This document shows, one piece after another, positions 4,888 to 64,000 of a stretch of DNA of 64,000 nt. The stretch covers positions 9,338 to 73,337 of the forward strand of contig CAYXYP010000002.1 in NCBI GenBank assembly GCA_964469405.1. Direction: 5' to 3'. The notes under the pieces are model-generated. The model made no database searches, was not told the DNA's origin, and saw nothing but the letters and a program-made list of their open reading frames with translations. Both the position numbers and the translations under genes were made by a program. Position 1 is the stretch's first letter; every line of letters starts with the position of its first letter. Source of the stretch: an uncultured Candidatus Saccharibacteria bacterium (GTDB lineage Bacteria > Patescibacteriota > Minisyncoccia > Phycocordibacterales > Phycocordibacteraceae).

Positions 4888-4896
4888 CGACAACAT

Positions 4897-5292
4897 ATGA
4901 TTAGATACTTTACCCTCGCAATCCTCACAGTCCTCATTGGATACGGCCTTCAGGAGGCTTGGCCGCTCATGGCGGGACCAACTCTCTCTATCGATTCCCC
5001 CATCAATAACGCCTCCTTAGAGAACGGTATTGTGACCATCTCTGGGAAAGCAGTCCGCGCCGCTGAGATTACACTTAATGGTGCCACAGTCCTCCACAAA
5101 GAGGATGGTAGCTTCTCAACGATTCTAACTTTTCCCCATGGGGGCTCTATACTTACCTTCAGAGCCACCGACCGATTCGGCAGGACTCTAACCTCCACAC
5201 GCACTATTTTTGTACCCGATTTTGTACCCGAAAAAGTATCGATCTTCACCAAATCCTCAATAGATCCATCTACAGATTCACCCGGTAGGTGA
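4897..5292 (+). CDS. Hypothetical membrane-anchored small protein
   Basis: 131 aa with an N-terminal TM helix; it starts 10 nt after the ftsK stop. Confidence 0.45.
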
Positions 5293-5339
5293 TTCTGCCA
5301 AATCAAGTTATCCTGCTACATCGACTAACAAACACCAAC

Positions 5340-6389
5340 ATGGCCTTCAAAAAATCAGCGAAAGAAAAAGTGCTCAAAACTGTTACCGCAGCGACTGCGG
5401 ATATGAGCGAAAAGCAAAAATCGATTGACCAGGCGCTGAAAGAAATCCGTACTAAATTTGGCGACGAAGCGATTGCAACCTATGGTACTGGTACTCCACA
5501 AAAAATACCGACGATATCAACGGGATCTATCGGCCTTGACGCTATTCTCGGTGTAGGCGGCCTCCCGCGCGGACGTATCATCGAAATATTTGGGCCAGAA
5601 TCCTCGGGGAAAACAACGCTCGCACTCCATGTCATCGCTGAAGCGCAAAAAGCCGGAGGTATCGCAGCATTCATCGACGCCGAGCACGCGCTCGACCCAG
5701 AATACGCCCAGCGAATCGGCGTGAAGCTACCTGAACTTCTCATTTCGCAGCCGGACACAGGAGAACAAGCTCTTGATATCGTTGAAAGTCTGGTACGAAG
5801 CGGGAATGTTGATGTTATCGTCATTGATTCCGTTGCTGCACTCACACCAAAGGACGAAATTGAAGGAGAGATGGGCCAGCAACACATGGGCAAACAAGCC
5901 AGACTTATGAGCCAAGCGCTCCGGAAACTTACTGCCATCGCTGCACGTAGTAAGACTATCGTCATCTTCATCAACCAGATCCGCATGCAAATAGGCGTCA
6001 TGTTCGGTAATCCCGAAACAACACCGGGCGGGAAAGCTCTTAAGTTTTATACTTCGGTGCGCCTCGATATTCGTCGTATCGCGTCAATAAAGAAAGGCGA
6101 GGAGATCGTAGGCGGTCGCGTACGCGTGAAAGTGGTTAAAAATAAAGTCGCGGCACCTTTCAAAACCACCGAGTTTGATCTTCTCTATAATGAAGGAATA
6201 AGTCGTGAGGGAGAACTCATTGCTCTTGGTGAAAAATTTGACCTTGTGGCGAAGTCAGGTGCCACCTATAAGATGGGTGATACGAAGCTTGGCGTCGGTT
6301 ACGATGCCTCACGCGTATACCTGCGTGAGAACAAACCGATCTCAAAGGATCTTCTCAAACGAATCCAAGAAAAACTCGCGGACAGCTAA
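5340..6389 (+). CDS. recA: Recombinase RecA
   Basis: Walker A motif GPESSGKTT plus the canonical RecA core. The ORF track starts it at 5289; MAFKKSAKE at 5340 or MSEKQKS at 5405 are more plausible starts. Confidence 0.95.
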
Positions 6390-6727
6390 CCTCGCGCCGG
6401 AATAAGGATGGAGGAAATGATGCGCGCAGTTTCGCGCGCAAGATAGACAAGGGAAATGATTGTGAGCACCGAAAGAGCCTGCACGACAATATGTGTGTGA
6501 TTGAAAGCGGCTACATAGAAATTAGGGAGGTTGGTGAAATCGCTCGGAGCATTCTGGAATACTTGCGCGACCCATACTTCCCTCCCAATACCCCACAGTG
6601 CGAGCAAGAGCGCGAGCGCGGCAAGAGATTCGAGTGAAATAAGCGGACGCAATATACGGATGATATACACACGCCGCATCACAATACGTTCGATATTTGA
6701 TTGATTATTCATAGTGTTGTTTGTCAT
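6386..6727 (-). CDS. Small two-TM membrane protein, putative anti-sigma factor partner of the upstream ECF sigma
   Basis: 113 aa; overlaps the sigma-factor stop by 23 nt (operonic) and overlaps the recA stop by 4 nt. Confidence 0.4.
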
Positions 6728-7301
6728 AGGATTGTTTGAAAAGTTTTTTCGCGCGGTGAATGCGAGTCTTTACTGCGGGAATTGAAATTTTTTCCACTGC
6801 GGCGACCTCCTCCTGGCTTTTACCTTCGATGAACTGTAACCGCAATATCTTCGATGCGGTTTCAGGAATTTTCGCGAGCGCGGCCAGAACTTCGCTTCTG
6901 AGCGAGAGATCTTCAAGAAATTCTGCTTGTGCATCCGGCAATGATTCGTAGTGCTCAGGAAGAAGCTCGGCCCGCTTCCCTCGCTCGATACTCGCTGCGC
7001 GATATTTCGTATACGCAACCCGATTGAGAATGATGTAGGCCCACGAAGAAAAACTAGCACCATCCTGAGGACGATACTTATCCGCGTAAAGGTACATCTT
7101 GGTAAACGCGTCCTGTACCGCCTCCTCTGCGTCCTCAGGAGAGGACAAAATGCGTCGTGCACGACGCAGGAGTGCCGCTTCATAGCGATGGACGAGAATG
7201 GAGAAGAGCCCCGGCTCCTTCGCGACGCGCGCAAGCACTTCAGCGTCTGAAAGTGCGCCCGGGTCCTCTATAGTTGAAAAACTCATAATGCCCTGTATCA
7301 T
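6705..7301 (-). CDS. RNA polymerase sigma factor, ECF (sigma-24) family
   Basis: Region-2-like segment LVHRYEAALLRRARRIL...AEEAVQDAFTKMY and region-4 HTH segment SQEEVAAVEKISIPAVKTRIHRAKKLF. Confidence 0.85.
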   Translation of the reverse strand: MIQGIMSFSTIEDPGALSDAEVLARVAKEPGLFSILVHRYEAALLRRARRILSSPEDAEEAVQDAFTKMYLYADKYRPQDGASFSSWAYIILNRVAYTKYRAASIERGKRAELLPEHYESLPDAQAEFLEDLSLRSEVLAALAKIPETASKILRLQFIEGKSQEEVAAVEKISIPAVKTRIHRAKKLFKQSYDKQHYE

Positions 7302-7448
7302 ACGCCTATCCCCGTTAGATAAGAACTTTTAAGGTCCTGCGGCACAAGCAGAGGCTAGTAATAATCTCGACTTACTGCTGTGCCCTAAGTTCGTTATCTA
7401 ATAGGGTACTTTTTATAACAAATCTTATCAATCTTTAGTTTCAGAACC

Positions 7449-8024
7449 ATGGCCGTACTGTCATACAACGAAATTCTCAAGGGCAGCATCATCAACTACA
7501 ACAATGAACCGTACGAAGTACTTTCGGCGCATATCTTCCGCATGCAACAAAGGAAGCCTGTGAACCAGACGAAGCTCCGCCACCTTATTTCTGGAAAAGT
7601 CACTGAAATCTCTTTCCACCAAAATGAAACCGTGACCGAGGCAGACATCGGGAAGATGCAGGCACAGTATCTTTACACTAATAAAGACGAGAGCTGGTTT
7701 GCCGAGGAAGGTAACGCGAAGAACCGTTTTTCATTTCCAGAGGATGCGGTGCACGATAAAGTTCAATGGCTCACACCAAACTCCACTGTCGAGATACTGA
7801 CCTACGAAGACAAGCCGATGACGGTTAAAATACCGGTAAAAGTTGACCTGGAAGTTAAGGATGCTCCGCCTGCAGTGAAGGGCAACACGGTCTCGGGTGG
7901 CAACAAGCTTGCGGTGCTTTCTACTGGCGCAAAAGTAAACGTCCCCCTCTTCATCAATACAGGCGATATTATTCGCATCAATACCGATTCGGGCGACTAC
8001 ACTGAACGAGTCGAGAAGAAGTAA
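7449..8024 (+). CDS. efp: Elongation factor P
   Basis: 191-aa EF-P family sequence with the KPVNQTKLRHLISGK loop region. Confidence 0.9.
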   Translation: MAVLSYNEILKGSIINYNNEPYEVLSAHIFRMQQRKPVNQTKLRHLISGKVTEISFHQNETVTEADIGKMQAQYLYTNKDESWFAEEGNAKNRFSFPEDAVHDKVQWLTPNSTVEILTYEDKPMTVKIPVKVDLEVKDAPPAVKGNTVSGGNKLAVLSTGAKVNVPLFINTGDIIRINTDSGDYTERVEKK

Positions 8025-10116: not shown

Positions 10117-11546
10117 AGTCGAGGAAAGAGATTTGTAGGTTTTTTATTAGACCGTACTGCTTCGATAATGAGGGTCGCGGTGTGCGGCATTGCAGGAGCG
10201 AGATGCATGGCGATACTCGCAAGCTGTCGCACTAGATACTCGATATCGTGACGGGCAGAAACCTGTTCCTCTACGATGAGGCTCTTGATTTTCTTATATG
10301 GCATACGCTCTGTCATGAAGACATCAGCGGCTGAGACTTTCGCAAAGACAAAATCCATTGCTTCGTTGAAATGAAACGTCTCGACAGTATCGAAAAATGA
10401 TTTCTCTATCTTTTCATCACCGTCTTCAAGAACGACCGGCTGCGACAGATGTGTTTCGGCAAGTGTCATCACGCGCGCGACGAGATTCCCCAGACCATTG
10501 GTAAGATGGGCGGTATAGTGTTCATGAATCACTTCGAGTGTAAGGTCCGAATCCTCCCTATGACTCGCGTGGCGCATAAGAACATATCGGAGGGCATCGA
10601 CGCCATATATTTTGACGAGATCCAGGGGATTGATGACATTCCCCAATGATTTGCTCATCTTCTGCCCCCCTGAAGTAATGAACCCGTGTATGAAAATATT
10701 TCGCGAGAATGGAAGGCCTGCCGAGAGAAGCATTGCCTGCCACATAGCTGCCTGCTGGCGCAAATTATCCTTCCCCGCCAACTGTGTCACCGGCCACCAT
10801 TTCAAAAAACGCTGGTTATCCTGCGGCCAGCCAATCGCCGATACATAATTTACAAGCGCATCAAACCAGACATACATAACGTGTTCCGAATCATCGGGAA
10901 CAGGCACCCCCCATGCGAGTTTTTCCCGTCGGCGCGAAATGCTGAAGTCCTTCAATCCTGCCGCAACGAAGGACATGAGTTCGTGCATACGTTCTTCCGG
11001 AATGACAAAGTCCTGCTGTGCCGCATACTGAGCGAGCAATACATCCTGATATTTGGAGAATCTGAAGTAGTAATTTTCTTCTTCGCGAATCTCTATATCC
11101 ACATTAGGATGAAGCGGGCAGCGTCCATCGACAAGCTCCGAGTCGGTCTTCGGAAGCTCGCAACCAACACAATATTTCACTTCATAGATTGCCTTGTAGA
11201 TATCATCCGCCTCGACACATTTCTTCCAGAACATTTGTGCAGCGGCAACATGTAAAGGGTCAGTAGTACGAACAAATGAATCGTAAGAAATATCTAGTTG
11301 GTCAGCGAACGTCTTGAAACGCGCAGCATACTCATCGACATATGCTTGGGGACTCTTCCCTTCTTCCTCTGCCTTCCGTTCAATTTTTGCACCATGTTCA
11401 TCGGTACCAATATTGAGAAAAACTTCGACACCTCTTGCACGTAGAGTGCGCGCAAGAACATCGGCCTCGACAAATTCGAGTGCGTGTCCAAGATGCGGAT
11501 CCGCATTCACATAGGGCAGCGTCGTGGTGAGATAGCGCGCACTCAT
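10113..11546 (-). CDS. metG: Methionyl-tRNA synthetase (short form)
   Basis: HLGH-type motif PHLGHALE, KMSKS motif, and MetRS-like sequence throughout. Confidence 0.9.
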   Translation of the reverse strand: MSARYLTTTLPYVNADPHLGHALEFVEADVLARTLRARGVEVFLNIGTDEHGAKIERKAEEEGKSPQAYVDEYAARFKTFADQLDISYDSFVRTTDPLHVAAAQMFWKKCVEADDIYKAIYEVKYCVGCELPKTDSELVDGRCPLHPNVDIEIREEENYYFRFSKYQDVLLAQYAAQQDFVIPEERMHELMSFVAAGLKDFSISRRREKLAWGVPVPDDSEHVMYVWFDALVNYVSAIGWPQDNQRFLKWWPVTQLAGKDNLRQQAAMWQAMLLSAGLPFSRNIFIHGFITSGGQKMSKSLGNVINPLDLVKIYGVDALRYVLMRHASHREDSDLTLEVIHEHYTAHLTNGLGNLVARVMTLAETHLSQPVVLEDGDEKIEKSFFDTVETFHFNEAMDFVFAKVSAADVFMTERMPYKKIKSLIVEEQVSARHDIEYLVRQLASIAMHLAPAMPHTATLIIEAVRSNKKPTNLFPRL

Positions 11547-33602: not shown

Positions 33603-33695
33603 GGTGCGCCGCTTTGGACAGAATTAGAACTTTATACAACACTCGCGATTCCGAACTCCTCAGGACATTAGCTATTATTCGGGATTTGGAAAGGA
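33603..33695. repeat. Repeat R copy 1: conserved block covering the last 7 codons plus 72 nt of 3' UTR of small paralog 1
   Basis: About 97% identical to 34873-34965 and about 85% to 36001-36095. Confidence 0.8.
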
Positions 33696-33923
33696 GGCAT
33701 CATGGTCGTCGCAAGAATCTGCCAAAGGCGGCGTAGGACGGCCGCTATGTTCGCCGGGTAGCGGACTATAGATAATCAGGTAGAGATTGATGAGGCGGCT
33801 TGCCATTTCCCGAGCCTCTTCCTCCTCAATGATCTTGCCGCACTCTTTTGCGTATATGACTCTAAATTCTTCGATTGATTCTTTTGGTGGATACATCTCT
33901 GGAGCATACGCAGGCACTCCCAA
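33675..33923 (-). CDS. Small conserved protein, paralog 1 of 3 (82 aa)
   Basis: IEEFRVIYAKECGKIIEEEEAREMASRLINLYLIIYSPLPGEH...SFPNPE; paralogs at 34945-35166 and 36072-36293. Confidence 0.6.
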   Translation of the reverse strand: MGVPAYAPEMYPPKESIEEFRVIYAKECGKIIEEEEAREMASRLINLYLIIYSPLPGEHSGRPTPPLADSCDDHDASFPNPE

Positions 33924-33934
33924 AAGGGCAGGAA

Positions 33935-34699
33935 TTACTTCTCAGAGTCTCTGTCTATTCGCTGTGTGCGGCTTCGTGTCAGGGTTTCCTTTCTCATCTC
34001 AAATAGGAGCTCCTTCATAACTTCAGGTTTAACCCGTATGTATGGAACTCCGTTGATAACTTCTTCTTCAATGTACGCCGGTAAGGACTGACGCCGATAC
34101 ACCGCAGGATCGTTCATATCCACACGAATAGTTTCTATTGGTTGATGAAAGAGTCTATTAACTACACAACCTGTAATTTCAGTATTGGTCGAGCTACCTT
34201 CCAATCGTAAGACCCACACACGCCTAAATGGGCCTGGGGAAAGGAGACTCTCTTTCAACTGCTCGACCCACGTCGGGCTTTGCGCGTTATTCAAGTAGAT
34301 AAGGAGATCGTAGTTTGTAGTTGAATAATGGTTTTCAAGTTTCCCTTTAATGATCACTCTTGCCTCCTCAATGCTCGTGCACCGCGGCGGCACCTCAACC
34401 AGTTCTATTTGTGCAAAACCAATACCGGGTGGATTTCCATCAAATACCAGGAGGCTGAAGTCAGGAAATTGATCCTTAACGGGCAACAAGAACCAATCTA
34501 AACCCGTGACCTTCTTCATTGCGACCATAAAGTACATAAGAGCAAAGCTCTCCCTATCTTTCTTTACATTCTCATCGGTGCTCGAGAAAAACTTCTTGGA
34601 ACCAATGCGCTTGAGTGTCGTTTCCATCTTTCTCAGCACCGCAATCCAATCTGAAAGAAGCAAAGAGTTGCTAGAAATGAAGCTTGGTTCCTGGGACAT
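33935..34699 (-). CDS. Hypothetical protein (254 aa), variable partner gene upstream of small paralog 1
   Basis: Ends 12 nt before the paralog-1 start; no recognisable domain. Confidence 0.5.
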   Translation of the reverse strand: MSQEPSFISSNSLLLSDWIAVLRKMETTLKRIGSKKFFSSTDENVKKDRESFALMYFMVAMKKVTGLDWFLLPVKDQFPDFSLLVFDGNPPGIGFAQIELVEVPPRCTSIEEARVIIKGKLENHYSTTNYDLLIYLNNAQSPTWVEQLKESLLSPGPFRRVWVLRLEGSSTNTEITGCVVNRLFHQPIETIRVDMNDPAVYRRQSLPAYIEEEVINGVPYIRVKPEVMKELLFEMRKETLTRSRTQRIDRDSEK

Positions 34700-34750
34700 T
34701 CATACATTGAAGCGAATGTCTGTCGCTTTGACTAGGCGGGGAACGACACA

Positions 34751-34872
34751 GAAAGGTTCGAATCCTGGACAGTGTCAACTGAACGAAACAAAAAATACCG
34801 ACAGTCGCGTAAAAAAGCCCTGAATTACAGGGCTTTTTAACGGCGTGATATTTTGCCTGCGAGACAAGAACT
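34751..34872. repeat. Repeat U copy 1: about 124-nt unit with a tRNA T-arm-like GGTTCGAATCC motif (34755-34765) and a bidirectional hairpin terminator (34811-34838)
   Basis: AAAAAAGCCCTGAATTACAGGGCTTTTT; copies at 35877-36000 and 36341-36465. Confidence 0.8.
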
Positions 34873-34965
34873 GGTGCGCCACTTTGGACAGAATTAGAAC
34901 TTTATACAACACTCGCGATTCCGAACTCCTCAGGACATTAGCTATTATTCGGGACTTGGAGAGGA
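34873..34965. repeat. Repeat R copy 2
   Basis: See R copy 1. Confidence 0.8.
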
Positions 34966-35166
34966 AGCTTGGAGCTCTCCAAGATGATCTTCCGAAGGCG
35001 GCATAGGGTGCTTAGGGATCTCGCCGGGTAGCGGACAGTAGATGATGAAGTAGAGCTCTATCAGACGATCGGTCATCTCAATTGCATCCCTCTCCGATAA
35101 GTACTTCCCGAATTCTTCCTGGTACAACTTCCGGAATTCATCAATGCTGGTTTTGTGTGTATGCAT
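34945..35166 (-). CDS. Small conserved protein, paralog 2 of 3 (73 aa)
   Basis: SIDEFRKLYQEEFGKYLSERDAIEMTDRLIELYFIIYCPLPGE...SSPSPE. Confidence 0.6.
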   Translation of the reverse strand: MHTHKTSIDEFRKLYQEEFGKYLSERDAIEMTDRLIELYFIIYCPLPGEIPKHPMPPSEDHLGELQASSPSPE

Positions 35167-35263
35167 GAGTACGGTCTACCCATGTCTCAGAAATCTTCAA
35201 GGGTTGCCACAAACAAAAAGAGCCAGGTTGTGTAACCTGACTCTTTTGATATAACGTTTACAA

Positions 35264-35587
35264 CTACCGAGCACAGAACTTCCCAGCTGGTTGGTTTTCA
35301 TAAATGGAATAGACTCGTCGTTGGCCATAGATGACCTTTTCGCCTGGTTGGAGATCTTTGCAGACACGTGTGCGACGCAGGAGTTTTCCGTTGCCGTCAT
35401 AATCGTGCCTCACCCACCAAGAGCCACCTGAACACCTGATCTGTCCATCAGTTTTCAAGATGAGCATTCGGCGACCCCAAAGCGGATAGAAATCGTAGCT
35501 ATGGGGCTCATTCTCGTTTCCACTACCCATCTCCCATCCCACAAGATGATCGAGACGAGCAAACACTCTTTGGAGCAAGGTTGTCAT
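35264..35587 (-). CDS. Hypothetical protein (107 aa), variable partner gene upstream of small paralog 2
   Basis: Trp/Gly-rich; no recognisable domain. Confidence 0.4.
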   Translation of the reverse strand: MTTLLQRVFARLDHLVGWEMGSGNENEPHSYDFYPLWGRRMLILKTDGQIRCSGGSWWVRHDYDGNGKLLRRTRVCKDLQPGEKVIYGQRRVYSIYENQPAGKFCAR

Positions 35588-35876
35588 GAACCCTCCTATC
35601 TTTCAATTGGGACAGTTTGAACAATCGTTTTCACACTTTCATGACCTGGTCGATGGGTGAGGATTAGAATTGTGCCGCGTTCCTCTCCTTGGAAATATTC
35701 GACAGTCTCTCCTCGCTTCTGTACTCGAGCCACCCTACCTCCGCCCGCTTTCTTTTCCATGCCATTTCCTTTCTGTGATCCATCAAAGAGCTGTTATGAA
35801 TTGTCTTCGCTGCTGTGGGAAAGTAAAGCACCCATGGTCGAGACTGTCACGAGAGGTGTTTCGGCAGGGTGCGAGA

Positions 35877-36000
35877 AAAAGGTTCGAATCCTATACAGAG
35901 TCGACAGGACAGATTTAGAAAGGCCGGCAATGCAACAAAAAAGCCCTTAGTTACAGGGCTTTTTTGTGTAGTGATATTTTGCCTACGAGGCAACGTGCGG
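35877..36000. repeat. Repeat U copy 2 (T-arm-like motif at 35881-35891; hairpin at 35937-35965)
   Basis: See U copy 1. Confidence 0.8.
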
Positions 36001-36095
36001 GTGCACCGCTTTGGACAGAATCAGAACTTTGTATAACGCTCGCGATCCTGAACTGCTCCACACACTCGCCATTATTCGGGATTTGGAAAGGAAGC
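36001..36095. repeat. Repeat R copy 3 (the most diverged copy)
   Basis: See R copy 1. Confidence 0.7.
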
Positions 36096-36293
36096 ATCAT
36101 ACTCGTCGCAAGAATCTGCCAAAGGCGGCGTAGTGACGTCGTTATGTTCACCGGGCAACGGGCGATACAAAATCTGGTAGAGACCGATCAAGCGTGCTAC
36201 CATCTCGATCGCATCTTCTTCAGATAGGTACTTCCCACACTCCTCCTGGTACAGCTTTCGAAATTCATCAATGCTATTTGTGTGTATGGGCAT
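36072..36293 (-). CDS. Small conserved protein, paralog 3 of 3 (73 aa)
   Basis: SIDEFRKLYQEECGKYLSEEDAIEMVARLIGLYQILYRPLPGEH...SFPNPE. Confidence 0.6.
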   Translation of the reverse strand: MPIHTNSIDEFRKLYQEECGKYLSEEDAIEMVARLIGLYQILYRPLPGEHNDVTTPPLADSCDEYDASFPNPE

Positions 36294-36340
36294 ACCTACT
36301 CTCTACCCGTATATCAAAACTCTTCAAGTTTCTGGCTTCA

Positions 36341-36465
36341 GAAAGGTTCGAGTCCTACACAGAGTCAGCAGAACAGATTTAAAAAAGCTCGTGAAGCAGC
36401 AAAAAAGCCCTGAATTACAGGGCTTTTTTACGGTGTGAAATTTTGCCTGCGAGGCAATGTGCGAG
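36341..36465. repeat. Repeat U copy 3, directly abutting the tRNA-Leu(GAG) 3' end (T-arm-like motif at 36345-36355; hairpin at 36401-36429)
   Basis: See U copy 1. Confidence 0.8.
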
Positions 36466-36549
36466 TGCCCAGGAGAGGACTCGAACCTCCAAGCCCTTTC
36501 GGGCGCTACCACCTCAAGGTAGTACGTCTACCAATTTCGCCACCTGGGC
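36466..36549 (-). tRNA. tRNA-Leu (anticodon GAG), type II with long variable arm; no encoded CCA
   Basis: Manual fold: acceptor GCCCAGG/CCTGGGC, anticodon loop TTGAGGT, variable arm CGCCCGAAAGGGCTT, T-arm GGAGG-TTCGAGT-CCTCT. Confidence 0.9.
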
Positions 36550-38596: not shown

Positions 38597-38765
38597 ATTT
38601 ATTTCAACCTACAGATCATTACTTTTGGTTTCAGGTGCACCCTGATGGGCTTGGTCACGTATAATTTCTTGCTAATAATGTGCGCGACTCCGGATCGAAT
38701 CGGCACCCTCCGGCTTTCGAGCCCCACAAAATACGGCGAAAGTATTGTTTTCGTCTCATATTTTG

Positions 38766-38839
38766 TGCACCCTGAGGGGCTCGAACCCCCGACCTTCGCA
38801 GTGTAAATGCGCTGCTCTACCAACTGAGCTAAGGGTGCA
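38766..38839 (-). tRNA. tRNA-Val (anticodon TAC)
   Basis: Manual fold: acceptor GCACCCT/AGGGTGC, anticodon loop TTTACAC, T-loop TTCGAGC. Confidence 0.85.
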
Positions 38840-38862
38840 TCAATACATCATACTGTATTTCG

Positions 38863-39011
38863 TGGGCATGGAGGGACTCGGTCACACTTCGCTCAGTCGC
38901 CTCGCTCCTAAGCGAGGCGCGACCCCGGCTCGCCTGTCCTCACTTCGTTCAGACATAGCTCCGCCTTTCGAGTCCTGCGCACCCTATGTAGATAGGGTGC
39001 GCCCCATGCCC
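38863..39011 (-). ncRNA. 149-nt tRNA-Leu-like element: acceptor stem and T-loop/3' end identical to the adjacent tRNA-Leu(CAG), with about 115 nt of hairpin-rich sequence in place of the D, anticodon and variable arms; pseudo-tRNA, insertion-disrupted tRNA, or novel tRNA-like ncRNA
   Basis: 5' GGGCATG.GGCG and 3' CGAGTCCCTCCATGCCCA are shared with 39033-39114. Internal hairpins: GCGCACCCTAT/ATAGGGTGCGC (11 bp) and CGCCTCGCT/AGCGAGGCG (9 bp). A CTGA(A/G)CGAAGTG motif is repeated. Confidence 0.4.
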
Positions 39012-39032
39012 TCCGCTCATTGCATTTCGCTG

Positions 39033-39114
39033 TGGGCATGGAGGGACTCGAACCCTCAACCCTTACGGGATACGCTTCTGAGACGTACGCGTATACCAGT
39101 TCCGCCACATGCCC
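39033..39114 (-). tRNA. tRNA-Leu (anticodon CAG), type II
   Basis: Manual fold: acceptor GGGCATG/CATGCCC, anticodon loop CTCAGAA, variable arm TCCCGTAAGGGGTT, T-arm GAGGG-TTCGAGT-CCCTC. Confidence 0.85.
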
Positions 39115-43149: not shown

Positions 43150-43623
43150 ATGCCCCGCAATGTTGTTTTAGAGTGGAGAGGAACGGAATACGATTACAAC
43201 CCAAAAAGTGCTGATTGGTATTGGGCGCTTGGCATTATCGCAGTCGCTGGCACAATAGCCGCGGTACTCTTCGGCAACTATCTACTTGGGGTTGTTGTTG
43301 TCGTCGCGGCAGTATCGCTTGCGCTCCACGCTGCGAAACGACCTTCCGTGCATCGTTTCCGTCTTGTCGAACAAGGCATCATCATCGGAGAAGAGCTTCA
43401 TACTTTTGAGCGAATGATTTCCTTTTCCGTTCTTGAAGACATCGAGGGGAAGCACCCCCCGATGATCTCCGTCAAGACTGAAAGTTGGCTTTCGCCACAC
43501 CTGATAATCCCACTAGAGGGCGTTAATGCCGACACAGTGTTTAATTATTTCCTGCAACATGTTGAGGAAGATGCCCATCATCACACATTTTCCGACTTGG
43601 TGGCGGCTTGGATTGGATTCTGA
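43150..43623 (+). CDS. Hypothetical membrane protein
   Basis: 157 aa with two TM helices. Confidence 0.5.
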   Translation: MPRNVVLEWRGTEYDYNPKSADWYWALGIIAVAGTIAAVLFGNYLLGVVVVVAAVSLALHAAKRPSVHRFRLVEQGIIIGEELHTFERMISFSVLEDIEGKHPPMISVKTESWLSPHLIIPLEGVNADTVFNYFLQHVEEDAHHHTFSDLVAAWIGF

Positions 43624-43639
43624 TATACATTCAAGTATT

Positions 43640-43711
43640 GCTCTCGTCGTTCAACGGATAGGACACCGGCTTGCGGAGCCGGCAATAGAGGTTCGATTCC
43701 TCTCGAGAGCA
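43640..43711 (+). tRNA. tRNA-Arg (anticodon GCG)
   Basis: Manual fold: acceptor GCTCTCG/CGAGAGC, anticodon stem-loop CCGGC-TTGCGGA-GCCGG, T-loop TTCGATT. Confidence 0.8.
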
Positions 43712-43920
43712 CAAAAAGAGCGTAGTGATTTTTGTGCTCTCGAAGCACGTCGCCTGCGCGACGTGCTTGAGGAATCGAAAGGCGGAGCGATGTTCGGCTA
43801 GCAAGCCGAACCGCGAGCCCTGCCCAGACAAACTTTTGCGACGGCAAAACTTTAGTCGAGGAAGATATGGCGTACTCGCCGGTCCTCTTTGCTATGAGAA
43901 AGTGTTAGTATCGCTAAAAT

Positions 43921-43992
43921 GCTCTCGTCGTTCAATGGATAGGATAGCCCCCTCCGAAGGGGCCGATGCTGGTTCGATTCCAACCGAGAGCA
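43921..43992 (+). tRNA. tRNA-Arg (anticodon CCG)
   Basis: Same acceptor and D-arm as 43640-43711; anticodon stem-loop GCCCC-CTCCGAA-GGGGC. Confidence 0.85.
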
Positions 43993-43994
43993 CC

Positions 43995-44039
43995 AAACAG
44001 CAAAAAAGGCCCCCATATGGGGGCCTTTTTTGCTGTTTG
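43995..44039. terminator. Strong bidirectional terminator between the tRNA-Arg genes and rpsT
   Basis: CAAACAGCAAAAAAGGCCCCC-ATAT-GGGGGCCTTTTTTGCTGTTTG. Confidence 0.8.
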
Positions 44040-44046
44040 GTGCTTT

Positions 44047-44313
44047 TTACTTCTGCCCTCTCTTAATTGCAGCGGCGAGACGGGACTTCTTTCGGTCTGC
44101 GGTATTGCCTTTGATAACTCCACGCTTACGTGCCTTGTCTATTGCAGCAAATGCTGCTGGGAGAAGTTTTTCAGCACCAGAAACATCTGAAGCTGCAAGT
44201 GCTTTCGTAAGAGACTTCACTGCATCATGAAGGGCGTCCTTGCGGCGCAAATTAAAGACATGCTTCCTCGCCGATGAGCGAATCGCTTTCTTTGCAGAAC
44301 TGGTAATAGCCAT
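44047..44313 (-). CDS. rpsT: 30S ribosomal protein S20
   Basis: 88-aa basic helical protein (AITSSAKKAIRSSARKHVFNLRRK...). Confidence 0.85.
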   Translation of the reverse strand: MAITSSAKKAIRSSARKHVFNLRRKDALHDAVKSLTKALAASDVSGAEKLLPAAFAAIDKARKRGVIKGNTADRKKSRLAAAIKRGQK

Positions 44314-58684: not shown

Positions 58685-60844
58685 ATGACTTCCAAGCGGC
58701 GCTTTCCATGGCGGCACTCTCTTCTTGCGTCTATTCTGGCACTTTTGGGTCTCGGGTTCTTTATAGGAGGCGGGGTTCTTCTTGCTGTTGTTGCAACCCC
58801 AGCGCCCGATATTGATTCCTTTTCCTCACGGCAGATTGACCAGTCAACAAAAATATATGATCGTACTGGGCAAATACTTCTCTACGACTACAACCGGGAC
58901 GCCAAACGCAATGTCGTCCCCCTCACCGCAATATCGCCCAACACAATAAACGCAACAATAGCGATTGAAGATTCAAGTTTTTATGCACATGGGGGCATCC
59001 GCCTTACTTCAATAATTCGAGCCACATTCGTCAACGCTGTCGGTGGTGCGATCTCGCAGGGTGGCTCAACCATCACGCAACAAGTTATTAAAAACGAGCT
59101 CCTCACAAACAGAAAAAGTGTTACTCGAAAAATTAAAGAGTGGGTACTTGCGATAAAGCTGGAACAAGTCTACTCAAAAGATCAGATTCTCGAGACATAT
59201 CTTAATACCATTCCCTATGGCGGTACCCTCTATGGTATTGAAGCCGCTTCTGAGGCTTACTTTGGGAAACCCGCAAAGGACCTCTCGCTAGCACAAGCGG
59301 CATACCTTGCGGCTATGATTCAGGCGCCTTCCTATTATTCGCCGTATGGCGCCCATCAAACTGAACTTACAGCCCGTAAAAATCTTGTCCTTGATCGAAT
59401 GTTTGAACTTGGTTTTATAAATAGCTCTGCGCACACATCTGCACAAGCTGAAAAAATTTCTTTCTCCCCTGCGGGCCAGAATGCGGTCATAGCGCCTCAT
59501 TTTGTTTTTTATATCCTCAACCAACTCGAAGAGACTTATGGTTCCAGAGCTCTTACGGCGGGACTAAAAGTCACCACGACACTGGACGCTGAACTTGAGG
59601 TAGAAGCTGAGTCCATCGTTAATCAGTATGCACTCGAGAATGTGAAGAAATTTAAAGCAACAAACGCATCTCTTGTTGCTATAGACCCCCCGACAGGACA
59701 AATTCTTGCTATGGTTGGTTCCCGAAATTTTTTTGATAAAGAAATTGATGGACAATATAACGCCACACTTGCTTCTCGCCAGCCTGGCTCAACAATGAAG
59801 CCTTTTATTTACTCACTTGCCCTTAAGGCTGGCTACACGCGCGACACTATTGTCTTTGATGTTCCGACTCAATTCTCAACGGTATGCAAACCATCGGAAA
59901 CAACAAATAACACCGCACCTTGTTACGCTCCTGTTAACTTTGACGGGGCTTTCCGTGGCCCTATGACCTTTGAAACAGCCCTTGCCCAATCAATCAACAT
60001 CCCAGCTATTAAAACCCTTTATCTTGTTGGGATACAGAACGCGGTAAATCTCGCCAAATCATTTGGCCTTACTACTCTTGGCGACCCAAATCAATATGGC
60101 CTTACGCTTGTGCTTGGTGGAGGTGAAGTACGCCTTCTTGATCTTACTGGCGCATATGCCGCTTTTGCGAATGAGGGAACATTAAATACCCCGACAGGAA
60201 TACTCGAGGTTGATGATGCTGCAGGAAACGTACTCCAACAATTTTCTGCACAATCCTCAATAGTACTCCCAACACTTATTGCACGAGATGTTTCTGCAAT
60301 GCTCTCTGACGCCCGTGCCCGCCTCCCGGAGTATCCACTCAACTCCCCTCTCTCTTTCTCGGGATATGATGTGGCAGTGAAGACAGGAACAACAAATGAT
60401 ACTAAAGATGCATGGATCGTCGGCTATACCCCCTCTATCGCGATTGGTGTATGGACAGGAAACAACGATAACTCCCCTATGGTTAAGTCTGTTGCTGGTT
60501 TTATTGCGGCACCAATGTGGCATGAAGTAATGGCATATGCTCTCTCAAAATACCCAAAAACTTATTTTGGTGAACCGAGCGCTATACTTTCTTCTGTTCC
60601 CCCTATGTTGCAGGGGAACTGGAGTGTCCGTGACATGCAGGGAAATATATTTCCTCATAGTTTATTGTATTGGACTGATAAACATAACCCTCAAGGCCCA
60701 CCTCCTCTTAATCCTTCAGAAGATCCTCAATTCGAATACTGGGAATATGGGGTTTCCGCATGGTATACCGCTCACCCTGATCTTTTTTTAGGTGGAGTGA
60801 TGACTCCTGTACCTCTATCAAATAACGCAACTACAACTTTTTAA
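58685..60844 (+). CDS. Class A penicillin-binding protein (glycosyltransferase plus transpeptidase)
   Basis: GT51 motifs EDSSFYAHGG and GGSTITQQ; transpeptidase STMKPF (SxxK). Confidence 0.9.
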   Translation: MTSKRRFPWRHSLLASILALLGLGFFIGGGVLLAVVATPAPDIDSFSSRQIDQSTKIYDRTGQILLYDYNRDAKRNVVPLTAISPNTINATIAIEDSSFYAHGGIRLTSIIRATFVNAVGGAISQGGSTITQQVIKNELLTNRKSVTRKIKEWVLAIKLEQVYSKDQILETYLNTIPYGGTLYGIEAASEAYFGKPAKDLSLAQAAYLAAMIQAPSYYSPYGAHQTELTARKNLVLDRMFELGFINSSAHTSAQAEKISFSPAGQNAVIAPHFVFYILNQLEETYGSRALTAGLKVTTTLDAELEVEAESIVNQYALENVKKFKATNASLVAIDPPTGQILAMVGSRNFFDKEIDGQYNATLASRQPGSTMKPFIYSLALKAGYTRDTIVFDVPTQFSTVCKPSETTNNTAPCYAPVNFDGAFRGPMTFETALAQSINIPAIKTLYLVGIQNAVNLAKSFGLTTLGDPNQYGLTLVLGGGEVRLLDLTGAYAAFANEGTLNTPTGILEVDDAAGNVLQQFSAQSSIVLPTLIARDVSAMLSDARARLPEYPLNSPLSFSGYDVAVKTGTTNDTKDAWIVGYTPSIAIGVWTGNNDNSPMVKSVAGFIAAPMWHEVMAYALSKYPKTYFGEPSAILSSVPPMLQGNWSVRDMQGNIFPHSLLYWTDKHNPQGPPPLNPSEDPQFEYWEYGVSAWYTAHPDLFLGGVMTPVPLSNNATTTF

Positions 60845-60871
60845 TAAGAAGGATGTGAATTTAAATTACTA

Positions 60872-61972
60872 TTATTGATTCATTGGAGAAACGAGATACA
60901 GGAGTGAGGTATCATTCATTCCTTTTATAATAAGTGGGCGCCCAACTCCAGCCGCAAGAAGTGAGACACTTTCTGATGTGGTGAGAGATAACACTGCTGA
61001 AAGATATCGATGATTAAAAGACAATTCAAGAGCACTTCCTGATATGTTGGCTGGGATTGTCTCTAATGATTCTCCAATATCTGCATTTCGCGCAAAGAAA
61101 GAAAATACATTCTTTTTAGGATCAAAACTAATACGTACTTTCTGAAATAAATCAGAAAAAATAGTTGTTCTCTTGAGTGCATTTTCGAAATCTTTTCGCA
61201 ATATAATTGCTTCAACAATTGATTCTTTTGGTATAATTTGCCTATAATCTGGGTACACAGCATTTGTTAGGCGTGATACCAACATACCCTTATCACTTAC
61301 AAAGGCACATTGATGCTCATCAAATGACATAATAATATCATTATCTGGTAACGCTTGTGCTATATCAAGAGCATTTTTTGCTGGAATAAGAAACTTTCCT
61401 TGAAGTCCTTTATTAATTAAAGGTACTTTTTTCTCAGCAAGTCTGAATGAATCAGTAGCAACAGCGGTTAATATCCCCCCTTCAATAGATATATAAATAC
61501 TGGATAATTCAGGACGGACCGTAGATGTTGATGCGCATGATGCAATAGAGGTAAAAAGTGAACGTAAAAGTATTCCAGGAATTACTATTCTATTTTTTGG
61601 ATTTTCTGGAAATGGAATCGACGGGAAATCATCATAAGGAATGGTTTTTATAGAGCTTTTACTTGTACCACTTGTAATTGAAATAACCTCCCCAATATGC
61701 TCGATTATTATCTTCCCTTCTTGAGTGAATAAGCTTGCTATTTGCTGAAGTATTATCGCAGGAATTGCGACAACGCCTTTTGTAGTGCATTCACCTTCAA
61801 GTTTTAAATCTATACCTGTCTCAAGATTTGTTGCACGCATTTTTATACCCTCATCTCCCGCAATAATAAGTATTGAAGACAGTGCAGGAAGTGTTGCGCT
61901 TTTCTTTTGAGCAAACCGAGACACGATATGCACAGCCTCAGAGAATTTATTTTTTTCTATTAAAATATTCAT
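60872..61972 (-). CDS. dnaN: DNA polymerase III beta sliding clamp
   Basis: 366 aa; three-domain clamp profile; immediately downstream of dnaA. Confidence 0.9.
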   Translation of the reverse strand: MNILIEKNKFSEAVHIVSRFAQKKSATLPALSSILIIAGDEGIKMRATNLETGIDLKLEGECTTKGVVAIPAIILQQIASLFTQEGKIIIEHIGEVISITSGTSKSSIKTIPYDDFPSIPFPENPKNRIVIPGILLRSLFTSIASCASTSTVRPELSSIYISIEGGILTAVATDSFRLAEKKVPLINKGLQGKFLIPAKNALDIAQALPDNDIIMSFDEHQCAFVSDKGMLVSRLTNAVYPDYRQIIPKESIVEAIILRKDFENALKRTTIFSDLFQKVRISFDPKKNVFSFFARNADIGESLETIPANISGSALELSFNHRYLSAVLSLTTSESVSLLAAGVGRPLIIKGMNDTSLLYLVSPMNQ

Positions 61973-62072
61973 ACAATTCTTATTAAGGGTGTTGATAAGT
62001 GGATAACATAAAAATATAAGGAGATTGTTGGATATTTACACACGACTGTTTTATATAATATGTTGATAAGGT
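61973..62072. promoter_or_regulatory. Candidate oriC segment: AT-rich dnaA-dnaN spacer with DnaA-box-like 9-mers
   Basis: TGTTGATAA (61991-61999), AGTGGATAA (62000-62008) and TGTTGATAA (62061-62069), compared with the TGTGGATAA consensus; AT-rich run TTTTATATAATAT. Confidence 0.55.
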
Positions 62073-63428
62073 TCATACAAGAAGGGTTCTAATATTTTGA
62101 ATTTCTTGTGCGAGTTCACTGTCCACAACTATTTCACGCTTTATCTTCTCACAGGAGTGGATAACGGTCGTATGATCACGACCACCAAGTTTTGTACCTA
62201 TGGTTGGGTACGATATTCTAAAATCCTCACGAAGGATATACATTATAATTTGCCGCGGACGAACAACTTCCCTACGTCTAGTTTTCTCATAGATACTCTC
62301 TTCATCGATACCATAAAATTCAGCTACTTTATCAACTACATTTTTTACCGATATATTTTTCTGTGGACGAGTAAAAGAACGTAGAGACTGCCGCACTTCC
62401 GCGATGTCGGGGGCAAAACCCTTTACTTGAGCATGGCAGATTATACTATTTACCATACCTTCTAACTCACGTATTGAGCCATTCATAGATGTTGCTACAT
62501 AATCAACAACCTCATCAGATAGTAGTACACCATGTGAGGCAGCTTTTTTTCTTACAATAGCCATACGGGATTCTGGGTCGGGTTCGCCAATATCTACAGC
62601 CATACCACTCGCTAAACGGCCCTTAAGACGTTCAGCGATGTCTGGAATAGCCGCAGGAGGTCGATCAGAAGAAAAAATAATCTGTTTATTTGTGTCGTAA
62701 AGAGCATTAAAAAGATGGAAAAGCTCCTCCTGAGTCTTTTCTTTTTTAGAGAGAAATTGAACATCATCCATAATAAGAAGGTCATATTGACGATATTTAT
62801 CTTTGAAACGATTTGCAGTACCAGCTTGCACGGAGTCGGTATAGTCGACTGCGAATTTTTCTGACGTTAAATAGAAAACTTTCCGTCCTTGGTACTGTTT
62901 TTTATAATGGTTACCAATAGCTTGAATAAGGTGCGTTTTGCCGCGGCCGGTGTCACCGTAAATAAAGAGAGGGTTATAGGTAATACCAGGGCGTTCGAGT
63001 GCCGCCTGGGCTGCAACATAGGCTAAATTGTTAAAAGAACCGATAACAAACGTATCAAACGTATAGCGGGGATTCAAATTGTCACTTTTGTTGATGTAAA
63101 AATCATCAAGAGGAAGTTCGAGTGCACTACTACGTACGGTTTTGGTCTCCTTGGATAATCTACGATTCTCATCCTTCACAATAAGATACTCAATATTGCG
63201 AAATTCATATGAAACGTCGCGAACAATCTTCAATAGTAAGGTATTAAATTTCTTAAGGTACCAATCCTTAAAGAATTGACTCGGGACACCAATATATACA
63301 ACGCCGTCCTCCCCTATTTTTACGATAAAACTATTACGGAACCATGTGTTGAAATTTGCGGGCGATATAGAAAGTTCAATATGGGTGAGTATGTACTCCC
63401 AAAGTTCTCGAGGATCTCCTTTATTCAT
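62073..63428 (-). CDS. dnaA: Chromosomal replication initiator DnaA
   Basis: AAA+ GDTGRGKTHL; C-terminal DNA-binding domain; divergent from rpmH. Confidence 0.95.
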   Translation of the reverse strand: MNKGDPRELWEYILTHIELSISPANFNTWFRNSFIVKIGEDGVVYIGVPSQFFKDWYLKKFNTLLLKIVRDVSYEFRNIEYLIVKDENRRLSKETKTVRSSALELPLDDFYINKSDNLNPRYTFDTFVIGSFNNLAYVAAQAALERPGITYNPLFIYGDTGRGKTHLIQAIGNHYKKQYQGRKVFYLTSEKFAVDYTDSVQAGTANRFKDKYRQYDLLIMDDVQFLSKKEKTQEELFHLFNALYDTNKQIIFSSDRPPAAIPDIAERLKGRLASGMAVDIGEPDPESRMAIVRKKAASHGVLLSDEVVDYVATSMNGSIRELEGMVNSIICHAQVKGFAPDIAEVRQSLRSFTRPQKNISVKNVVDKVAEFYGIDEESIYEKTRRREVVRPRQIIMYILREDFRISYPTIGTKLGGRDHTTVIHSCEKIKREIVVDSELAQEIQNIRTLLV

Positions 63429-63527
63429 AGTGTTCTGAAAGTATACGCTTTTTATTCATTCAAGATATGTTGGCGTTTCGGGGAGAACCTGTTAGTATCG
63501 TGTGCATAACCTAATTTTCCGTTCACT

Positions 63528-63665
63528 ATGTCCAAACGAACCTATCAACCGAAAAAACGTAAGCGCGCTACGACGCACGGGTTTCTTGCGCGGACAAAAA
63601 CGAGTTCTGGGCGTAAGATAGTGAAAAAACGCCGTCGTATCGGTCGCGCACGACTCGCAGTCTAA
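63528..63665 (+). CDS. rpmH: 50S ribosomal protein L34
   Basis: My translation gives [45 protein letters not shown] (45 aa; below the ORF-track length cutoff). Confidence 0.85.
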
Positions 63666-63671
63666 TTATTT

Positions 63672-63983
63672 GTGTTCTCACGTCGAGAACGTCTTTCTCG
63701 TGCGGCATTCCCTACGGCCCTCTCTACTGGTCGGCGGTTCTCATCGACAAACTTCAGTGTCGTTTTACCAAAAGAATCACGAGGATATGCGGTTGTAGTG
63801 TCAAAAAAAGTCGCTCGCCTCTCGGTCACGAGGCATTTAATTAAGCGGCGAGTGCTTGAGGCCCTTCGAACGCTCCCTCTTCCCTCCTCCATTATTGTTT
63901 TCCCAAAAACAGCGGCTAGCCGGATGTCCTACCAGGACGTCAAAGTGGAGCTCGCAACCCTTCTTTCTAAAATTAGCCGATAG
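63672..63983 (+). CDS. rnpA: RNase P protein component
   Basis: 103-aa basic protein immediately after rpmH, following the conserved rpmH-rnpA order. Confidence 0.8.
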   Translation: MFSRRERLSRAAFPTALSTGRRFSSTNFSVVLPKESRGYAVVVSKKVARLSVTRHLIKRRVLEALRTLPLPSSIIVFPKTAASRMSYQDVKVELATLLSKISR

Positions 63984-64000
63984 AGTAGAATAAATGCATG

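Follow-up and report, generated by a model that had tools for sequence, protein, structure and literature searches.

The 208-nt spacer between the tRNA-Arg(GCG) and tRNA-Arg(CCG) genes of an uncultured Candidatus Saccharibacteria bacterium is a 3'-truncated member of a widespread family of structured RNA elements of about 150-190 nt, here named tRNA-tail elements. In this family, a conserved core is framed by an outer adapter that is locus-specific, being composed of a 5' strand, a T-stem strand, a T-loop complement and a tail that copies the adjoining tRNA. The stretch of DNA analysed (64,000 nt, hereafter the window) carries two further members, an intact one behind tRNA-Leu(CAG) and a decayed one behind tRNA-Val(TAC). 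No description of the tRNA-tail family was found in the open-access literature, and it is apparently undescribed.

The window is chromosomal DNA of a groundwater bacterium of the Patescibacteria (Paceibacteria/Minisyncoccia-like). The genes around the spacer are polA, a Mur ligase gene, pilM, rpsT, uppS and ruvA. An identical contig (L001) comes from Hainich aquifer metagenomes, and the best S20 relatives carry the labels Paceibacterota, Minisyncoccota or Kaiserbacteria. ARAGORN places nine tRNA genes between 31.8 and 47.4 kb of the window, including the host tRNAs of the three elements and the gene that follows the spacer:

43640-43712, + strand: tRNA-Arg(GCG), host tRNA of the spacer copy (ARAGORN; Rfam tRNA model, 61.5 bits)
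43921-44044, + strand: tRNA-Arg(CCG), then a perfect palindrome/terminator (ARAGORN; repeat and terminator scans)
39032-39114, - strand: tRNA-Leu(CAG), host tRNA of the intact copy (ARAGORN, Rfam)
38765-38838, - strand: tRNA-Val(TAC), host tRNA of the decayed copy

The palindrome at 43989-44044 is perfect, with 28-nt arms that include the last 6 nt of tRNA-Arg(CCG), and is a bidirectional terminator common to this gene and the convergent rpsT; the strong terminator after tRNA-Arg(CCG), at 43993-44040, probably ends the transcription unit that contains the spacer element. Other assemblies of the window organism break exactly at this palindrome. CGN codons are normally decoded in bacteria by an ACG anticodon deaminated to ICG. 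A tRNA-Arg with the anticodon GCG adjoining tRNA-Arg(CCG) is present in the window and in L008, L011-L013, L063, L084, L112 and L125, an arrangement suggestive of an unusual tRNA set for Arg decoding in these Patescibacteria. Elsewhere in the window, three direct copies of a unit of ~273 nt + 127 nt, 69-82% identical, adjoin tRNA-Leu(GAG) at 33603-36468, each with a terminator-like hairpin AAAAAAGCCCTGAATTACAGGGCTTTTTT, and the G+C content drops from ~0.48-0.51 to 0.39-0.41 over the last 4 kb (60001-64000), an end that may be foreign DNA.

The spacer copy begins 17 nt past tRNA-Arg(GCG). Its parts, together with the inverted repeat that ties it to the tRNA gene, are as follows:

43703-43743, + strand: perfect 15-bp inverted repeat, tRNA 3' end and trailer with the element 5' strand (sequence)
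43743-43768, + strand: hairpin 1, 11 bp with a CUGC (CTGC) tetraloop (sequence, folding)
43769-43792, + strand: T-stem 5'-strand mimic and core motif
43792-43819, + strand: hairpin 2 (variable) and second invariant block
43820-43861, + strand: hairpin 3, subtype-II-like form (CM alignment)
43868-43897, + strand: extra small hairpin GGCG-TACT-CGCC, then decayed 3' tail GTCCTCTTTGCTATGA (alignments)

A 12-bp hairpin that an earlier note on this DNA had placed at 43706-43740 is the core of the perfect 15-bp stem, in which 43703-43717 (TCGAGAGCACAAAAA, i.e. the last 10 nt of tRNA-Arg(GCG) and 5 nt of trailer) pairs with 43729-43743 across an 11-nt loop. The loop, GAGCGTAGTGA (43718-43728), is an instance of a recurrent mini-module, GAnCGnAGyGA, and GCTCTCG at 43736-43742 within the element 5' strand is identical to the 5' acceptor strand of tRNA-Arg(GCG). 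The 11-bp hairpin described at 43743-43768 is likewise present, with its CTGC loop. It is followed by the T-stem mimic GAGGA, which pairs with TCCTC at 43883-43887, and by the core motif GGAATCGAAAGGCGGAGCGATG at 43771-43792. The 14-mer TCGAAAGGCGGAGC, previously noted as a shared motif, occurs exactly at 43775-43788 (+) and 38958-38971 (-), and the similarity around it reaches 24 nt at 92%; it is indeed shared but is not free-standing, as it lies inside the 22-nt core: its first bases, TCGAA, fall in the stretch complementary to the tRNA T-loop, and the remainder opens the invariant core of a three-way junction. Hairpin 2 consists of GTTCGGCT-AGCA-AGCCGAAC and leads into the invariant block CCGCGAGCC, which closes the helices GGC/GCC and GCG/CGC. 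Hairpin 3, CTGCCCAGAC...GCGACGGC...GTCGAGG, has a form also seen in L008 and L125. In these two loci, the tail is preserved as (G/A)TCCTC(T)CGAG(G/A)GCAC, which duplicates the 3' end of tRNA-Arg, whereas in the spacer copy TCCTC alone is left and the acceptor 3' strand is deleted. The spacer is therefore a truncated family member, and its 5' strand is left with a single pairing partner, the 3' end of the tRNA-Arg upstream. The core is intact though the tail is gone, and the copy scores 97 bits (E about 1e-28) with the covariance model (CM) of the family. It has the core together with G[CU]GAGCC (43771-43819), hairpin 1 and a same-strand tRNA gene less than 130 nt upstream; folding of the 208-nt spacer gives -80.5 kcal/mol (z = -4.1 versus shuffles).

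No promoter-like site or terminator was found between tRNA-Arg(GCG) and the terminator at 43993-44040: the scan for intrinsic terminators lists only one weak 5-bp site inside the spacer, at 43868-43881, and the hairpins at 43703-43768 have no U-run behind them. The open reading frames predicted here (43526-43801, 43581-47 and 43725-44066) span tRNA genes and are as implausible as the earlier note held. A small open reading frame starting at the ATG of the core was considered and rejected: in the spacer copy, 3 codons are followed by a stop, the reading frame is not maintained among copies, and the hairpin loops contain indels.

The two other window elements, which also sit between co-oriented tRNAs, are composed as follows:

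38862-39021, - strand: intact family member, the earlier '149-nt tRNA-Leu-like element' (CM, 110 bits, E = 1.4e-32)
39004-39011, - strand: 5' strand GGGCATGG
38977-39002, - strand: hairpin 1, CUAC loop
38954-38975, - strand: core
38935-38953, - strand: hairpin 2
38927-38934, - strand: GGCGAGCC block
38881-38924, - strand: hairpin 3
38862-38880, - strand: tail CGAGTCCCTCCATGCCCAC
38635-38768, - strand: third, decayed copy directly behind tRNA-Val(TAC), before uppS (CM)

The Leu copy begins 11 nt past tRNA-Leu(CAG). Its 5' strand is the acceptor 5' strand of this tRNA, and its tail is identical at 19/19 nt to the last 19 nt of the tRNA, from C56; the core with G[CU]GAGCC (38927-38975), hairpin 1, the tRNA linkage and the tail copy are thus all present in this copy. 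The Leu-Val spacer folds at -96.1 kcal/mol (z = -7.6 versus shuffles). Aligned with the Arg spacer, it has its parts in an identical order, namely a long hairpin (CUAC or CUGC loop), AGGAnTCGAAAGGCGGAGCnATGT, a variable hairpin, GCGAGCC and a further hairpin. The stems of the two long hairpins have different sequences, each complementary, and both kinds of hairpin 3 are represented in the window, by one copy each. The link that had been drawn between the spacer and a tRNA-Leu-like element holds, with the correction that both are members of one family. The Val copy scores 19.1 bits (E = 1.4e-4 with filters off); it keeps hairpin 3, its core is degenerate (TCGAAAGCCGGAGG, with the 14-mer matched with 2 mismatches), and its tail CCAAGCCCATCAGGGTGCAC agrees with the tRNA-Val 3' end (CGAGCCCCTCAGGGTGCAC) at 17/19 positions. 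ARAGORN and the Rfam tRNA model call no tRNA (a cloverleaf with D arm, anticodon arm and 7-nt T-loop) on any of the three elements, and neither ARAGORN nor Rfam calls a tmRNA in the window. Judged on the window alone, the shared repeat is marginal and only suggestive: the 14-mer with at most 2 mismatches is found 4 times versus 0.58 expected, and chance inverted pairs of comparable length exist. The decisive evidence comes from other genomes, together with the CM scores.

One genome per GTDB species was scanned for GGANTNGAAAGGCGNAGCNATG. The 22-nt core, GGAnTnGAAAGGCGsAGCnATG, was detected in at least 119 genome loci versus about 17 expected by chance, the latter being our own estimate for 18 fixed bases, 596 Gb and both strands. 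Among the matches listed, the hosts are nearly all Patescibacteria (Saccharibacteria, Kaiser-, Nomura-, Falkow- and Vogelbacteria, Paceibacterota) or Elusimicrobia; a few listed gut MAGs under other labels carry Elusimicrobia-type sequence and are suspected binning errors. A same-strand tRNA or tmRNA gene ends at most 130 nt upstream in 85 of the 126 listed core occurrences, nine more lie at a locus edge, and many others are second units of tandem arrays. The upstream genes of the listed occurrences cover 17 amino-acid specificities and tmRNA. In 108/126 listed copies, G[CT]GAGCC is found no more than 60 nt from the core, and a copy of the last 16 nt of the tRNA, with at most 2 mismatches, is present 107-155 nt past the core in 47 of 97 elements from the listed loci. 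The concentration of the motif behind tRNA and tmRNA genes across genomes, and a fold kept across two phyla, support the small noncoding RNA family linked to tRNA genes that had been proposed from the window. Copies behind the same tRNA persist across related species, as is the case for tRNA-Tyr, tRNA-Met and tRNA-Ser in many Elusimicrobia and for tRNA-Arg(GCG) in several Patescibacteria. The usual arrangement in Elusimicrobia has an intrinsic terminator separating the element from its tRNA, with no evident promoter, so that co-transcription there would need read-through. In L031, a LOOT RNA (RF03000, 71 bits; 2057-2175, -) lies 65 nt downstream of a tmRNA-linked element, and this tmRNA gene is thus trailed by two orphan structured RNAs in a row.

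The family shares a single order of parts. From the 5' end, an element starts with a 5' strand of 7-10 nt, complementary to the acceptor strand of the tail, followed by A-G and hairpin 1; then come cGu and 1-2 nt, the T-stem 5' strand and 5 nt that complement T-loop positions 56-60 and account for the variable 'n' positions in the core motif; these are followed by AAA, GGC-GsA-GCG-aU, hairpin 2, cGC-GA-GCC, sG and hairpin 3; and the element ends with a copy of the tRNA from C56 to its 3' end (with CCA in Elusimicrobia). Hairpin 1, with 8-11 bp and a CURC tetraloop, directly precedes the core; hypervariable in sequence among family members, its stem is nevertheless always paired. The adapter folds as a continuous helix of ~17 bp that mimics the acceptor/T arm (minihelix) extended by 5 bp. 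The three-way junction (AAAGGCGsAGCgAUG, hairpin 2, CCGCGAGCC and hairpin 3) replaces U54-U55 of the T-loop, and hairpin 1 stands in for the D and anticodon arms. A derivation of hairpin 1 from the anticodon or D arm of the host tRNA was considered and dropped, as inspection revealed no likeness. The origin of the 5' strand, as a copy of the tRNA 5' end or as the complement of the tail, is almost evenly split, at 4 versus 5 informative positions. At several loci in Patescibacteria, the tRNA 3' end and its trailer belong to a long (terminator) palindrome whose descending arm is simply the 5' strand of the element, as at 43703-43743 in the window. At least two subtypes of the element are found together in single genomes. 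The GAnCGnAGyGA module is about 58-fold above background inside the elements, with 24 sense and 0 antisense occurrences. It has the form of a C(GNA)G mini-hairpin flanked by GA/GA and is placed either at the tip of a hairpin or in the linker that joins tRNA and element; the window has it at 43718-43728 and 38940-38950 (-), and many other loci carry it.

The fold is heavily marked by covariation across the two phyla. In a MAFFT alignment of 40 members, RNAalifold detected compensatory changes in 29/39 pairs. A covariance model was then used, which yielded 134 matches in 98 loci, the window and L008, and 33 matches in a further 29 loci, 3 of these 33 being the window's own copies in L001. Many of the CM matches do not carry the exact core pattern, and the CM rejects the two obvious chance matches of the pattern (L122 and L127) along with three of its four viral matches. 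In the alignment of the 134 sequences, 93.7% of cells are paired versus 66.5% in shuffles, compensatory double changes are present in 37/39 pairs, and the covariation score is 0.595 versus 0.17 in shuffles and at most 0.083 with partners slid; this alignment being fitted to the CM, the MAFFT figure of 29/39 is the less biased. Helices 1-2 are 97-98% paired, and all 8 of their pairs have compensatory changes. The unpaired nucleotides are strongly conserved, and G-U pairs outnumber A-C pairs (189 versus 66). This excess, together with the sense-only occurrence of the mini-module, indicates that it is the tRNA-sense strand that is folded, most simply as RNA. A mutual-information scan recovered the nested helices alone, with no further covarying pairs or pseudoknot; indeed, a pseudoknot of the CUGC loop with GCAG-containing segments was rejected, as these show no covariation.

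The loci of relatives were obtained through S20 homologues and scanned with ARAGORN and BLAST. In L008 and L009 (S20 91% identical), an element lies between the Arg tRNAs, 88% identical over 138 nt and bounded by GTGCTCTCG on the 5' side and GATCCTCGAGAGCACC on the 3' side, which form a tRNA-Arg mimic; L125 carries the element too. In L013 and L014 (S20 87%), the Arg tRNAs are separated by 23 nt with no element, and the gap from tRNA-Leu to tRNA-Val is 74 nt. L011 and L012 also have no element, and protein-coding genes occupy their Arg-Arg interval. This patchy presence indicates an insertion gained and lost among close relatives. At the Leu-Val site, the filled and empty states were aligned across differing tRNA-Leu genes, an alignment that does not define the junction. 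The Arg-Arg interval is a hotspot: it measures 23 nt in L013 (10394-10416), 208 nt in the window, 295 nt in L008, 551 nt in L012 (locus 10394-10765), with an AdoMet-decarboxylase-like ORF, and ~1.7 kb in L011 (locus 3429-7671), with a 447-aa ORF. In L013 (and L014), tRNA-Lys is directly followed by the start of a LAGLIDADG-type ORF, and rpsT is neighboured by a HepT/MNT toxin-antitoxin pair (5630-6460 and 9314-9942 in L013).

Near-identical tandem units are found in several lineages, namely in L027, L107, L110 and L116, and a single tRNA is trailed by arrays of mixed subtypes in L080 and L048. One L080 copy behind tRNA-Ser has a Tyr-like tail, and decayed copies are common. The tandem copies of L091 are mosaics that switch inside the conserved core. 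In L079, copies behind tRNA-Gly and tRNA-Pro have in common a block of ~97 nt, 100% identical, which opens with the T-loop complement (GAATCG), spans the three-way-junction core and closes with the T-loop portion of the tail (CGATTC); their 5' strands, hairpins 1, T-stems and the rest of the tails differ, and each adapter fits its own tRNA. The patterns of L079 and L091 indicate that the core module was moved or homogenised among locus-specific scaffolds; the identical core of L079 could be due to gene conversion instead of movement.

Searches in known families gave no relative of the element. With Rfam 15, the window and the best family members gave nothing at gathering score beyond tRNA and tmRNA, with noise at permissive E values; in search spaces of 200-420 nt, no family matched at E values up to 5-10. 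No ribozyme or intron model of Rfam matched the elements, nor did the tmRNA or Y-RNA models, genuine tmRNAs being located upstream of some elements elsewhere. Among 2.9 million viral contigs, only four chance matches of the core pattern were detected, devoid of any other family feature, and blastn against phage and plasmid records gave no match. No integrase, reverse transcriptase or other recurrent ORF family was found in the listed loci (at least 119). A partner protein encoded nearby was also sought and rejected, since the clustering of 1016 locus ORFs returned only pilin-like and syntenic housekeeping families.

With moderate confidence, we favor the reading that the tRNA-tail elements are RNAs that ride in tRNA operons, are cut out by tRNA-processing enzymes, and spread or exchange modules among tRNA loci. 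The window elements appear to lie inside tRNA operons, between co-oriented tRNAs and, for the spacer copy, with no promoter-like site or terminator in between, and would therefore be co-transcribed with the tRNAs. The minihelix mimicry and the real tRNAs that flank the elements suggest their release as stable RNAs by RNase P and the 3' tRNA-processing enzymes: RNase P would cut at the 5' end of the mimic and at the next tRNA, the 3' trimming enzymes would act at the other end, and the excision could proceed, by analogy, as for mascRNA or the tRNA-linked snoRNAs. We also infer a processing role for the tRNA-linked elements, which the earlier note had entertained. The conserved core would carry a putative activity, such as protein binding or catalysis, and comparison of the loci suggests that copies are gained and lost behind tRNA genes and that the core module is exchanged from copy to copy. 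The family would thus behave as a tRNA-hitchhiking, possibly selfish, RNA gene.

That the elements are not selfish, and are kept by the host as a trans-acting tRNA-related regulator or decoy, appears unlikely to us. The left arm of 17-20 nt, made up of the 5' strand, the T-stem strand and the T-loop complement, would then pair with the cognate tRNA in its 3' half, or an enzyme or toxin that recognises acceptor/T arms would be titrated by the minihelix. Such a function could be consistent with the complementarity to the cognate tRNA 3' half, which is precise and varies with the tRNA, with a core conserved across two phyla and intact in the window spacer despite its lost tail, and with the persistence of same-tRNA copies across related species; however, close relatives do well without copies, decayed copies are common, and the left arm is normally taken by the element's own tail.

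A mechanism at the level of DNA was weighed as well, in which the copies would be miniature integrative elements or relics of attachment sites, installed by a tyrosine integrase acting in trans at the T-loop, and the hairpins would be recombination-site architecture or incidental. Recombination at the T-loop would duplicate the segment from the T-loop to the 3' end, and the direct repeat of the tRNA 3' segment is indeed observed, beginning exactly at C56 of the T-loop and running to the end of the tRNA. A repeat of this kind is reportedly the classic mark of integrases that insert into tRNA and tmRNA genes at the T-loop sublocation. The presence of tmRNA among the targets, the tandem and mixed-subtype arrays, the patchy presence among relatives and the Tyr-like tail of the L080 copy behind tRNA-Ser point in the same direction. 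Against it stand the lack of an integrase, reverse transcriptase or recurrent ORF family in the listed loci, inserts of 130-170 nt with no cargo between the repeats in any copy, and the absence of the family from phage and plasmid records and, bar the four chance matches, from the viral contigs. In addition, the conserved unpaired nucleotides, the covarying helices, the 3:1 excess of G-U over A-C and the strand-specific module argue for a folded single strand in the tRNA sense, and the adapter differs for each tRNA, which a fixed attP cannot explain. On balance, we consider this mechanism quite improbable. A bolder proposal, to which we give little credence, is that the invariant junction replacing U54-U55 is itself an active RNA, a new ribozyme or the RNA subunit of a new ribonucleoprotein, that targets the T-loop/acceptor region of tRNA and tmRNA genes or transcripts and installs itself behind new tRNAs with a freshly templated adapter; the family would then be an RNA-based, tRNA-templated mobile element confined to Patescibacteria and Elusimicrobia. 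Finally, the notion of an ordinary tRNA-operon spacer, with processing or terminator structures for hairpins and a 14-mer shared by chance with the Leu-Val spacer, could draw on a repeat only marginally above chance within the window and on the tRNA 3' ends of this genome, which often belong to long palindromes (43989-44044), but is refuted by the at least 119 core loci with the same architecture, the CM scores of 97 and 110 bits, the strong covariation and the hairpins at 43703-43768 without a U-run, and is extremely improbable.

The tRNA-tail family would add a large and phylogenetically broad class of structured RNAs to two poorly understood, genome-reduced lineages, Elusimicrobia and the candidate phyla radiation. 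Its combination of an unchanging core with an adapter fitted anew to every adjoining tRNA is a design without a described counterpart, which poses a testable question, namely how an RNA gene copies a tRNA end. The family also bears on why genomes change so often at the 3' ends of tRNA and tmRNA genes, and may reveal a new RNA-protein machine or ribozyme. For annotation, the elements matter in that their loci yield spurious ORFs, pseudo-tRNA-like signals and possibly assembly breaks.

Several known systems share some of these features. Like the tRNA-tail element, tmRNA, the YrlA Y RNA and viral tRNA-like structures mimic the acceptor/T arm and have the other arms replaced; these mimics retain a genuine T-loop and have, within each family, a single fixed sequence, whereas the tRNA-tail element has a three-way junction in place of the T-loop, copies whichever tRNA is upstream and, unlike tmRNA, has no tag ORF. 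GOLLD, ROOL and LOOT are likewise orphan structured RNAs located next to tRNA or tmRNA genes, but they are larger or prophage-borne, do not copy a tRNA and have no sequence or structure similarity to the tRNA-tail element. The closest likeness in working is probably, by analogy, that of mascRNA (MALAT1), tRNA-snoRNA and tRNA 3'-ETS RNAs, in which a passenger is excised via RNase P/RNase Z; these are single-locus RNAs without homology to the multi-copy tRNA-tail family. Att-site duplications at the T-loop sublocation resemble the element in their direct repeat, their tRNA and tmRNA targets and their tandem arrays; compared with such islands, the insert is only about 130-170 nt, without integrase or cargo, and it has an extra inverted copy of the tRNA segment and a covarying, strand-specific fold. 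The MITE/REP-type repeats Correia, ERIC, RPE and REPIN are, like the tRNA-tail elements, short, multi-copy, non-coding, structured and patchy, with decayed copies. They are scattered or aimed at short motifs and have fixed termini, whereas the tRNA-tail elements lie mostly behind tRNA or tmRNA genes (85/126 listed), on the same strand, with termini re-tailored to each tRNA.
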